This document shows, in pieces, positions 5,285-8,059 of a DNA stretch of 64,000 bases. The DNA is taken from assembly GCA_000165345.1 (NCBI GenBank), contig CM000436.1, positions 1-64,000 on the forward strand, written 5' to 3'. Under the pieces are notes generated by a model. The model was not told the DNA's origin. It saw nothing but the letters and a program-made list of their open reading frames with translations, and did no database searches. The position numbers were made by a program, and so were the translations under genes. Every line of letters begins with the position of its first letter. The first letter of the stretch is position 1.

Positions 5285-8059
5285 TTATTTGTTTTGTTTA
5301 CTTTGAAGTAAAACTAAAAATTTTATAAAGTTCTTAACGAATAATTTTTCTATTAATTTAACATACATTAATTCTTGATCAAATACACATCGAGCTACAT
5401 TTGAATGTAAATGCTGAATAATATTACCACATTGTTCTAATGCAATTAATATTTCCTCTAAAGTTGAATCTTCAGTAATTATAGATAAATCAATTAAGCT
5501 TTGTTCAAATTCTAAATATTTATTTTCATATCTCTCTAAAGCTTTGCTTGTTAATTTTTCATCTCTACTTTGCGAAAAATATTTTAAAAATCTTGACTCT
5601 TTGACTGATTGTTCTTTTTCAGTGTCTGAAAATGGAAAGTCAGGCACTTCAAATCCGTCAAATCTTAGTATTCTCATTTCCGGAGATCTGCCTCTAGATC
5701 TACTCCTAGTTCTGGAACTACTTCTAATTCTTGATTTTGACCTTAACCTAGTACGAGAGCGAGTGCGAGAACGAGTACGAGAGCGGGAACTAGAACGAGT
5801 ACTAGAACGAGAACGAGGTCTAGACCTTATAGTCCCTGTTTTTGGTCTCGCTCCTAATTCCAATGGAGGGCCTAATACAGAGCCTGATACAGAGCCTGAT
5901 GCAGAGCCTGATGCAGAGCCTGATGCAGAGCCTTCCTCCTGTAAGTTATCAGCTTCTGATATTGAGAGTGAAGCAAAGGCATCTGAAATATTATTCACAT
6001 TATTTGTTCCTTTCTCTTCAGTTTCATCAAAAATAACCCCATAAACAAATCCAATCAAAGCTGATAAACCATCTCTACTTTTTTCAGCTTCCCTAAATAA
6101 TCCCTCCATTGATTCTACAGAATTTAATAATGAATACATGTAATTGCTATGTTCAATCCTCCTCAGTCTTTCTCTCTCTCTTTCCCTTTCCCTTTCTCTC
6201 TCCTCTACTCTTTCTCTTTCTTCTCTTTCTCTTCTAGTTTCATTCTTTGTCCTTCTTTCATCCTGCTTTCTCTTTCTTGTAGAAGTATTACTGGACTTTT
6301 GCTCTTTAATTGTTTTCTTTACCTCTTCCCTTTGTAAAGACTTCTCCTCTTCTTTTAAAAGTTTTTTAAGCTTTTCTTCTTTCCTATTAGTTTTTTGTCT
6401 ACAACTTCCGTAATGAACTCCAGATGAAGCTTCTTGATGAACAGCTGGACTAGCACTTTTTTGTGTTTCGCCTACATTTTCCTCTGTAACTTCAATCATA
6501 TTTCCTTCTAAAGTAGGAAATTCTCTTTTAAATCTAGTTCTCTTTCTTTGTCTTTTCATTTCCTCTTTAGCTTGTTTAACTATATTGCTACGTTCTCTAT
6601 CCGCTTTTTCTCTTTCTTCTCTTTCTCTCTTCTCTTTAAGCCTTTTTTCTTTTTGTTCTTTTTTATGCAACTCAAATTCAGTTAAGAGTTTTTTTTTACT
6701 AAGTTCTTTCTTTTTCTTTATATTTTTTTGTATCTGGCTCAATTGCAAATTTCTTATTTTTTCTTCTGAATAACTCTCAATTTGTTTGATTTGCTTTGCA
6801 CATTTTTTTGTAGCTTCCTCATACGCCGAAACTACGCTTTGAAATAATATAGAAAAAGAATTCGATTCAGTAACAGCCTCATAGAATTTTTTTAATGTTA
6901 ATAAACTTTCTAGTAAAACCTTGTAAATTTCTTTCATATTGCGAATAATTATACCTTTACCTACAAAAAAATCAAAATATTCACTAACTAAATTATTGGA
7001 CTGAATTCTTTCTGCATCAAATAACTCTCTTGTTTTAACTTTAATATTTAAATATTTTTCTTCTGATAATTCAGAGCAACTTATTCTTTCCAAATAACTT
7101 TTTATAGCTTCTTCCTTTTGGAAAATTTCATTCAGAATAGTGTCTAATGAGCTCTTTTCGAAAAAAAAGACTATAAATAAACTTGATTTTAAAACATCAA
7201 AAGCTGTTAATATTATTACTTTAATTGAGCATAATTCTTCCATATCAAGATCCAATTTTTCAAAATCTGTGTTTGAACCTGAATTACTTTCTGTAGTTTT
7301 TAAATGAGGCATATTATAACAAAAATTAAATTGAATTTTAGAAAAAGTCTCTTTATTCGCAATAAATCTCCTTGTGATATCTTTCCTTGATGATTTTAAA
7401 AATATTTCAGAAAATTGAGATAAAATGAATGAATGTTCTTCGAAAAAAGTAATAATTGAAATAGCCATATGACCTAAAAAGTTATCTACTCCATAATCCA
7501 ACAAAACTAAAAACTTTTCCATCAATAAGGCAATTTCTCTTTCTAATTCTTCTTTATTCTCAACTACAAAATTAAAGAATTTTACTGAGCCTTCATTCAT
7601 TAACGCAATAATTTTCCTTCGCATGTTATTATTTTGACTCTGCGAAAATTTCTTAATTTTGTTAGCTTTATCGATCAAAACTAGTTCACTTCTCTTCTCA
7701 AAAGAGAAATTTAAAACAAAGCTAGAAAAAATATGAGTTAAAGGTTTATATTTTGTATCTACTTCATCTGCAGTAAACAAAGCAATCAATTTCAAAATTA
7801 ACTCCGCATAAACAGCTGACTCTATCAATGCACATTCCATGAAAAAGTTGCTTTCATAAGAATTATCAATTAATGCTCGAACTGCAGCATAAGTACGACT
7901 ATCACGATCTATCATTTGAAAAGTTTCTTCTTCATCTAATTCTTCGCTTTCATCAGAACTGTGAGGTGCTTCTGCTCCTTTAATGTGGAGAATATTGCTG
8001 AATAGCGAACCAAAAAAAATAATTATAAAAACACATGTCTTAAATTTTACAATTCTCAT
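5285..8059 (-). CDS. Subtelomeric secreted protein, family member A, 924 aa. It has a signal peptide (MRIVKFKTCVFIIIFFGSLFS...GAEAP) and a helical N-domain. A central tract carries KEEKLKKLL...ERERERERERL...HSNYMYSLLNSVES. GSAS and SRSRTRSRTR repeats follow, then a conserved C-terminal domain (FDGFEVPDFPF ... ALEQCGNIIQHLH ... LVLLQ).
   Basis: Long intact ORF. The N-terminal hydrophobic leader and the conserved blocks are shared with the ORFs at 8618-11575 and 14117-16771. Confidence 0.7.
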   Translation of the reverse strand: MRIVKFKTCVFIIIFFGSLFSNILHIKGAEAPHSSDESEELDEEETFQMIDRDSRTYAAVRALIDNSYESNFFMECALIESAVYAELILKLIALFTADEVDTKYKPLTHIFSSFVLNFSFEKRSELVLIDKANKIKKFSQSQNNNMRRKIIALMNEGSVKFFNFVVENKEELEREIALLMEKFLVLLDYGVDNFLGHMAISIITFFEEHSFILSQFSEIFLKSSRKDITRRFIANKETFSKIQFNFCYNMPHLKTTESNSGSNTDFEKLDLDMEELCSIKVIILTAFDVLKSSLFIVFFFEKSSLDTILNEIFQKEEAIKSYLERISCSELSEEKYLNIKVKTRELFDAERIQSNNLVSEYFDFFVGKGIIIRNMKEIYKVLLESLLTLKKFYEAVTESNSFSILFQSVVSAYEEATKKCAKQIKQIESYSEEKIRNLQLSQIQKNIKKKKELSKKKLLTEFELHKKEQKEKRLKEKREREEREKADRERSNIVKQAKEEMKRQRKRTRFKREFPTLEGNMIEVTEENVGETQKSASPAVHQEASSGVHYGSCRQKTNRKEEKLKKLLKEEEKSLQREEVKKTIKEQKSSNTSTRKRKQDERRTKNETRREREERERVEERERERERERERLRRIEHSNYMYSLLNSVESMEGLFREAEKSRDGLSALIGFVYGVIFDETEEKGTNNVNNISDAFASLSISEADNLQEEGSASGSASGSASGSVSGSVLGPPLELGARPKTGTIRSRPRSRSSTRSSSRSRTRSRTRSRTRLRSKSRIRSSSRTRSRSRGRSPEMRILRFDGFEVPDFPFSDTEKEQSVKESRFLKYFSQSRDEKLTSKALERYENKYLEFEQSLIDLSIITEDSTLEEILIALEQCGNIIQHLHSNVARCVFDQELMYVKLIEKLFVKNFIKFLVLLQSKQNK
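5860..5935 (-). repeat. Coding 12-nt tandem repeat of about 6 copies inside family member A (agagcctgat(a/g)c), encoding the GSAS/GSVS repeat. RS-encoding repeats lie adjacent at 5700-5830.
   Basis: Direct reading of the sequence and the translated SGSASGSASGSASGSVSGSV. Confidence 0.8.

Follow-up and report, generated by a model that had tools for sequence, protein, structure and literature searches.

The window analyzed (64,000 nucleotides of CM000436.1, a chromosome end of Cryptosporidium parvum with its telomere) carried three neighbouring genes of the SKSR family, and the first and third of these from the telomere (genes A and C) shared a short tract of near-identity. Sequence comparison suggested that this tract is the product of interlocus (non-allelic) gene conversion between A and C, recurrent in at least three Cryptosporidium lineages, acting in both directions and leaving out the gene in between (gene B); we give this reading a probability of about 0.85. 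Rather than one event, the pattern would reflect recurrent concerted evolution at a hot spot located on the only island of homology between A and C. The chromosome was apparently chromosome 8, as taken from the cgd8 gene names, and the presumptive numbers of the three genes were assigned by their order from the telomere. The genes and the segments under study were as follows:

5285 to 8059, reverse strand: gene A, an open reading frame (ORF) of 924 amino acids for a secreted protein of the SKSR family, cgd8_20 by position.
8618 to 11575, reverse strand: gene B, 985 amino acids, the same as EAK87455.1, SKSR family, cgd8_30 (named SKSR7) by position.
14117 to 16771, reverse strand: gene C, an ORF of 884 amino acids, SKSR family, cgd8_40 by position.
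6108 to 6390, reverse strand: putative conversion tract in gene A, with best-defined limits at 6111 and 6390.
14868 to 15150, reverse strand: putative conversion tract in gene C, 8760 bp from the A copy and in direct orientation.
9521 to 9808, reverse strand: the corresponding core block in gene B, unconverted.
6189 to 6205, reverse strand: GA-rich 17-mer GAGGAGAGAGAAAGGGA, in the polypurine centre of the tract, also present in B (9609-9625) and C (14949-14965).

The ungapped comparison of 6108-6390 with 14868-15150 gave 8 differences in 283 positions (97.2% identity), located at 6110, 6146, 6162, 6227, 6245, 6250, 6273 and 6311. The near-identity of about 97% described in the original prediction, made from the window alone, was therefore borne out, although its count of about 7 differences had missed 6110, and it placed two others one base too high (6228 for 6227, 6274 for 6273). 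A-C identity collapsed to about 30% right at 6391, and the sequences were unalignable upstream of it in gene orientation; the clear divergence claimed for both flanks held on this side but not on the other (6060-6107), where A and C remained about 75% identical for some 50 nt, the same as A-B and B-C there, which is the baseline of the family. The block in B was, as had been stated, far more diverged (69-71% identical to A and C), and the coordinates originally given for it, 9541-9700, fell within the homologous segment. In gene A the tract encoded residues 557-651 (NRKEEKLKK...ERERERERERL...HSNYMYSLLNSVES).

The near-identity also held at synonymous sites. A-C identity at third codon positions was about 0.93 in the tract vs. 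about 35% elsewhere; by the Nei-Gojobori method, synonymous (dS) and nonsynonymous (dN) divergence between A and C in the tract were 0.081 and 0.026, respectively, dS was at least 1.5 outside the tract, and the proportion of synonymous differences between B and either A or C in the tract was 0.76-0.77, that is, saturated. A GENECONV-style test (1683 sites polymorphic among A, B and C; 5000 permutations) singled out one A-C segment, 6389-6113, in which 86 of 93 sites matched and which scored 51 vs. a permutation maximum of 12, in agreement with the prediction; no second conversion tract was significant among the three genes, and no A-B or B-C segment stood out. Apart from the tract, the 62 kb that are not telomere contained no long repeat, and the tract coincided with the single island of alignable A-C homology (about 340-390 bp). 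Purines made up 76% of its sense strand, which has runs of GA, vs. 58-59% over the whole genes, and between B and either A or C no exact match in any part of the genes was longer than the 17-mer listed above. Two scans of metagenome contigs with the tract pattern, one exact and one degenerate, gave no matches.

The identity between A and C was local only, as it would be after the recent duplication or insertion of a segment (exon shuffling, a mobile segment); a recent duplication of the whole of A or C belongs to the same class of explanation. However, the homologous block was found at the same place in every family member, A and C were 15% identical in the N-terminal region of the proteins, and in the N-terminal tree A was closer to B than to C. 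Uniform identity along A and C, which the original prediction had named as the mark of a simple recent duplication, was not what the divergence outside the tract showed, and this explanation has practically no chance of being right.

Purifying selection without recombination, whether for the protein or for the nucleotide sequence itself (an RNA element, codon usage), would fit with the tract being the most conserved part of the family. The ratio dN/dS between C. parvum and C. meleagridis orthologues was about 0.32 in the core, but about 0.75 (A) and about 0.96 (C) outside it, so that, on these ratios, constraint is strongest in the core of genes that otherwise evolve very fast, and protein evolution of A and C outside the core would be nearly unconstrained or positively selected. 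The core (about 280-330 bp) is predicted to encode part of a long charged helix: in an AlphaFold2 model made from the alignment of A, B and C over residues 545-700, model residues 8-133 formed one continuous helix with a predicted local distance difference test score (pLDDT) mostly above 90, a model that relied on three sequences of a highly charged segment and is offered as context rather than proof. Nonetheless, protein selection does not hold synonymous sites, and the third positions of A and C were nearly identical in the tract; B was equally constrained, yet saturated at synonymous sites with respect to both A and C; and orthologues differed in the tract by 14-16%, whereas paralogues of the same species differed by 2-7%. 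Selection of this kind is accordingly a negligible candidate.

An error of assembly or polishing, by which one copy had been corrected with reads of the other, was also considered. At its start the window had what looks like a vector remnant, followed by a noisy run of telomere repeats (both described below), and this chromosome end is thus below finished quality. However, the same 19 A-C mismatches over a 330-bp alignment were found in GCA_035232765.1, GCA_031892065.1 and GCA_048859185.1, so that four assemblies of different technologies kept the tract with its eight fixed differences, and in these three assemblies no difference from the window was seen inside either tract. GCA_048859185.1 carried single-nucleotide polymorphisms (SNPs) elsewhere in A and B and is therefore a different isolate. 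Short reads told the same story: Logan contigs (run SRR5007564) stopped at 6361, 14900 and 15121, about 30 nt (approximately one k-mer) inside the tract edges, as happens with a true repeat in a de Bruijn assembly, and dozens of independent short-read assemblies, from many runs, broke inside the edges in the same way. The 260-amino acid partial gene C product resulting from this break was indexed in 38 blocks, and one 8540-bp contig was common to 19 samples. The presence of both tract copies in one genome was thus agreed upon by four assemblies and by short-read contigs. Because independent assemblies and short-read assembly graphs agreed, and with a parallel pattern in another species, mis-polishing of one copy, the other possibility that the original prediction had raised against itself, is excluded, with a residual probability close to nil. 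The variation of tract boundaries among isolates for which a search had been proposed was not seen either: the tract was invariant in all the C. parvum assemblies and contigs examined.

The syntenic loci of C. meleagridis and of Cryptosporidium chipmunk genotype I were compared with that of C. parvum:

C. meleagridis (locus L026): C at 10001-12652, B at 15144-18094 (broken by a stop), A at 18631-21486.
Chipmunk genotype I (locus L027): C at 4800-7478, B at 10001-12925, A at 13498-16272.

The gene C orthologues corresponded to the proteins P0005 (C. meleagridis) and P0007 (chipmunk genotype I), and full-length identity was about 80-85% among the A orthologues and likewise among the C orthologues. 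In C. meleagridis, A and C were 93% identical over 328 bp (BLAST), with 4 mismatches in a core of about 257 bp (equivalent to 6346 to 6078 in the window), and the same 12 nt were missing from both copies. In chipmunk genotype I the A-C core was 79-82% identical and either copy was about 74% identical to B; homogenization there is, judging from a dS of 0.55, old. The neighbour-joining tree of the tract grouped A with C within each species (bootstraps of 100% for C. parvum, 100% for C. meleagridis and 94% for chipmunk genotype I), and the three B tracts by orthology (100%). This tree conflicted with those of the flanks, in which A and C followed orthology. In parvum/meleagridis quartets, 0 sites supported the orthology pattern and 26 the species pattern in the tract, vs. 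763 and 8 sites, respectively, outside it (Fisher's exact p = 4e-42). The dS of the A-C core was 0.073 within C. parvum and 0.026 within C. meleagridis, but 0.34-0.42 between species; homogenization therefore took place separately after speciation, at least once per lineage.

A single conversion in the history of the locus, with the tract decaying ever since, would suffice for the C. parvum data alone, all the C. parvum isolates examined having the same 8 differences. Against it, core divergence within species was far lower than between species, A and C clustered by species in three species, the ends of the tract differed from one species to another, and the 12-nt deletion was confined to the two C. 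meleagridis copies. A single event is thus contradicted by these data and improbable, though less improbable than any of the explanations weighed above. Ectopic gene conversion between subtelomeric paralogues, as originally proposed, was supported by the synonymous-site identity, the conflict between tract and flank trees and the exclusion of an artefact, whereas the single mosaic event then envisaged proved too simple, given that the cores of C. meleagridis and chipmunk genotype I appear homogenized too, with other ends and directions.

The ends of the homogenized segment ran from 6390 to 6111 in C. parvum and from about 6346 to about 6078 in C. meleagridis (window coordinates), which left one segment at each end homogenized in one species only:

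6347 to 6390, reverse strand: 5' sub-segment of the tract (partner 15107-15150), of A type in both C. parvum copies.
6078 to 6110, reverse strand: segment just 3' of the C. parvum tract, A and C distinct in C. parvum, of C type in both C. meleagridis copies.

In the first (44 nt, homogenized in C. parvum and not in C. meleagridis), the base shared by the C. parvum copies was that of the C. meleagridis A gene at 10 sites and that of its C gene at 2; with respect to chipmunk genotype I, 6 sites were of A type and 1 of C type. Both C. parvum copies being of A type, copying would have been from A to C in this lineage. In the second (33 nt, homogenized in C. meleagridis only), 7 sites were of C type, 1 of A type and 1 of neither, and A of C. 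parvum was identical to A of chipmunk genotype I throughout; both C. meleagridis copies being of C type, copying would there have been from C to A. By parsimony at these two tract ends, then, exchange is bidirectional. An earlier view that the whole tract had a C-to-A origin, drawn from protein representatives, was withdrawn, because the reference C orthologues had themselves been homogenized with their A genes and because the C. tyzzeri protein taken as an A orthologue (P0006) is another paralogue, its 870-kb contig having the length of chromosome 1. The DNA of the true syntenic loci led to the mosaic, bidirectional picture instead.

Another source for the shared sequence would be a third SKSR paralogue, from the clusters of chromosomes 1, 3 or 4, that overwrote both A and C. 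The family has nine members in C. parvum, and one of the other six was seen (P0014, chromosome 1; tract identity to A of 0.16). However, the 5' 44 nt in C. parvum were of A type and the sequence beyond the 3' edge was of native A or C type, so a local donor is sufficient; the closest relative found outside chromosome 8, the C. tyzzeri chromosome 1 paralogue, was 75% identical in the tract, and no other family representative exceeded 63% protein identity there, C orthologues excepted. A third donor is therefore somewhat less probable even than a single event. The C. tyzzeri contig end (L025, 853426-870632) carried a second cluster of three SKSR genes (996 amino acids, 1031 amino acids and the partial P0006), one of which contained 2.9 kb of N; no high-identity tract was found among its three paralogues.

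Recurrent conversion between A and C could proceed as follows. A break in the core of one copy would be repaired by strand invasion into the other copy, on the same chromatid, on the sister chromatid or on the homologue in the zygote, with short synthesis and no crossover, as in synthesis-dependent strand annealing. The unalignable 5' flank would halt the heteroduplex, so that the tract stops there. Each event would renew the near-identity and keep A and C good substrates for the next one, while B, about 30% diverged and with exact matches of at most 17 nt, would fall below the homology needed and would in this way have escaped.

Several points weigh against recurrent conversion as set out here. 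No conversion event was directly observed, and the pathway and its mitotic or meiotic timing were drawn from general knowledge of homologous recombination. The tract of the C. meleagridis A gene is known from a single Nanopore assembly, polished with Illumina reads, although that of its C gene was confirmed at the protein level in a second isolate. Chipmunk genotype I, the outgroup, was itself homogenized at some time, and each call of direction rests on 8-13 sites. The comparison of chromosome 8 loci covered C. parvum, C. meleagridis and chipmunk genotype I; exact look-ups of neighbouring proteins (290, 502, 424 and 180 amino acids) returned C. parvum records only and no C. hominis locus. Finally, of the nine SKSR genes of C. 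parvum the DNA-level comparison covered A, B and C, and the remaining six, on chromosomes 1, 3 and 4, leave some room for a third donor.

The polypurine core might also be a recombination hot spot whose events are resolved as crossovers, driving changes in SKSR copy number, though we regard this as rather unlikely. If true, a crossover of C with A would delete B and leave a fusion gene, C at its 5' end and A at its 3' end, B would be duplicated in the reciprocal product, and the tract would be the engine of the copy-number changes reported between isolates and species with different host ranges. The orthologue of cgd8_30 (gene B), for example, has been described as present in C. canis from foxes and absent from that of dogs and mink.

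The human fetal globin genes HBG1 and HBG2 are the textbook case of interlocus conversion and concerted evolution of tandem duplicates. As in the SKSR genes, a tract of near-identity lies there within older, diverged direct duplicates a few kb apart, the paralogues group by species within the tract, with repeated events over evolutionary time, and one tract edge adjoins simple, purine-rich or repetitive sequence. Unlike in HBG1/HBG2, the SKSR exchange skips an intervening paralogue and affects a coding tract of only about 280 bp, and the organism is a haploid apicomplexan whose sole diploid stage is the zygote. Subtelomeric families such as var and rif of Plasmodium falciparum and VSG of Trypanosoma brucei undergo ectopic recombination and segmental conversion; these too are subtelomeric genes for secreted or surface proteins in which homology-driven non-allelic exchange produces mosaic genes. 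However, var/rif and VSG are large archives that generate diversity, in the case of VSG with an expression site, whereas the SKSR exchange involved two fixed partners and homogenized a core. With its partners fixed and its tract invariant across C. parvum assemblies and contigs, it did not have the features of conversion of the antigenic-variation type (VSG- or var-like).

The nearest precedent was found in the same organism: duplicated chromosome ends of C. parvum, for which "recombination or gene conversion" was raised as a possibility (Baptista et al. 2022, PMC8744675). Both cases concern recombination between subtelomeric sequences, but that study dealt with whole regions distal to the rRNA clusters, with MEDLE genes and others, at the ends of chromosomes 1, 7 and 8; it included no short intragenic SKSR tract at the present end, and SKSR appeared in it only as a positively selected family. 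Papers on SKSR covered polymorphism, changes in copy number and positive selection, as well as the part that SKSR1 plays in virulence. SKSR1 (cgd1_140) is a virulence factor of the small granules; the proteins of cgd8_30 and cgd8_40 have been tagged, and the location reported for them was "not in host cell" (He et al. 2025, PMC12092579; Dumaine et al. 2021, PMC8687662). In the literature searched (open-access papers and preprints), the A-C tract was not described, and those papers searched that mention both SKSR and gene conversion did not connect the two.

Conversion between SKSR genes is a new instance of a well-known process, unsurprising in kind, and it does not change how that process is understood. 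It provides sequence-level evidence that non-allelic homologous recombination was repeatedly active at a Cryptosporidium chromosome end, previously only a possibility and for larger subtelomeric blocks (PMC8744675). It should be useful in Cryptosporidium genomics and in studies of the SKSR family: SKSR genes are candidate determinants of virulence and host range, and their trees, dN/dS scans and orthology assignments will be wrong if made without masking the core. The tract breaks short-read assemblies, and reads may map to the wrong copy, in which case the 8 positions fixed between A and C can pass for SNPs or for mixed infections. A guide RNA or homology arm designed within the tract would strike both cgd8_20 and cgd8_40. 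With two paralogues that still exchange next to one that escaped, the cluster also shows cleanly, on a small scale, how a gene can leave concerted evolution.

The three genes stood 3.7-15 kb from the telomere repeats, subtelomeric and clustered as expected of the SKSR family, and beyond its first 1.6 kb the window was AT-rich and dense with intron-free ORFs. The exact A and C products were encoded in three NCBI C. parvum assemblies (records of 1.34-1.38 Mb), and the exact gene C product was present in 5 records. The source record of EAK87455.1 describes a C. parvum protein that is secreted and belongs to the SKSR gene family, specific to Cryptosporidium, and a review counts nine genes in this family in C. 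parvum, cgd8_20 to cgd8_40 among them. A profile of the N-termini of A, B and C retrieved 28 SKSR family representatives, several of them named SKSR. Hydrophobic N-termini and C-terminal thirds rich in SR/SK were read from the three translations by eye, without a signal-peptide predictor. Pfam gave no family for the three proteins, only a sub-threshold "Transformer" match in the RS-rich part of A.

Other observations concerned individual genes. The only repeat in the window besides the A-C tract was an internal direct repeat of 60 bp in B (9032-9091 and 9104-9163, 90% identical), located in the stretch that codes for Arg/Ser-rich repeats. In C. meleagridis, B (L026, 15144-18094) was interrupted by an in-frame stop that left ORFs of 770 and 209 amino acids, and was absent from the called genes; it may be a pseudogene or the result of a base-calling error. 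A C-like fragment (P0008) was 92% identical to C, and its 1.8-kb contig ended before the tract.

The telomeric end of the window was as follows:

39 to 1600, no strand assigned: telomere repeat tract, with units of the CCTAAA type on the forward strand, read directly.

GC skew in the first 2 kb was -0.69. Many units of the repeat tract were irregular (CCCTAAA, CCTAAAA, CCTGAAA, CGTAAA), and other assemblies differed there by dozens of insertions or deletions (indels); the irregular units could be low-quality sequence or true heterogeneity. Positions 1-38, before the telomere tract, looked like a cloning-vector remnant: aligned to the pUC19 polylinker (HindIII-SphI-PstI-SalI-XbaI-BamHI) over 36 positions, they showed 30 identities and needed 3 gaps of one base each.

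In the spacer between B and C, about 19 substitutions or indels were concentrated in 116 bp (13266-13381) with respect to GCA_035232765.1 only, the two other assemblies matching the window. The cluster is not an inversion; an assembly error at this spot or the replacement of a small patch could account for it. The neighbouring gene at 17180-18688 encoded 502 amino acids in other assemblies but 489 over a longer span in one of them (L004, 7623-9592), one of the two models perhaps containing an intron.

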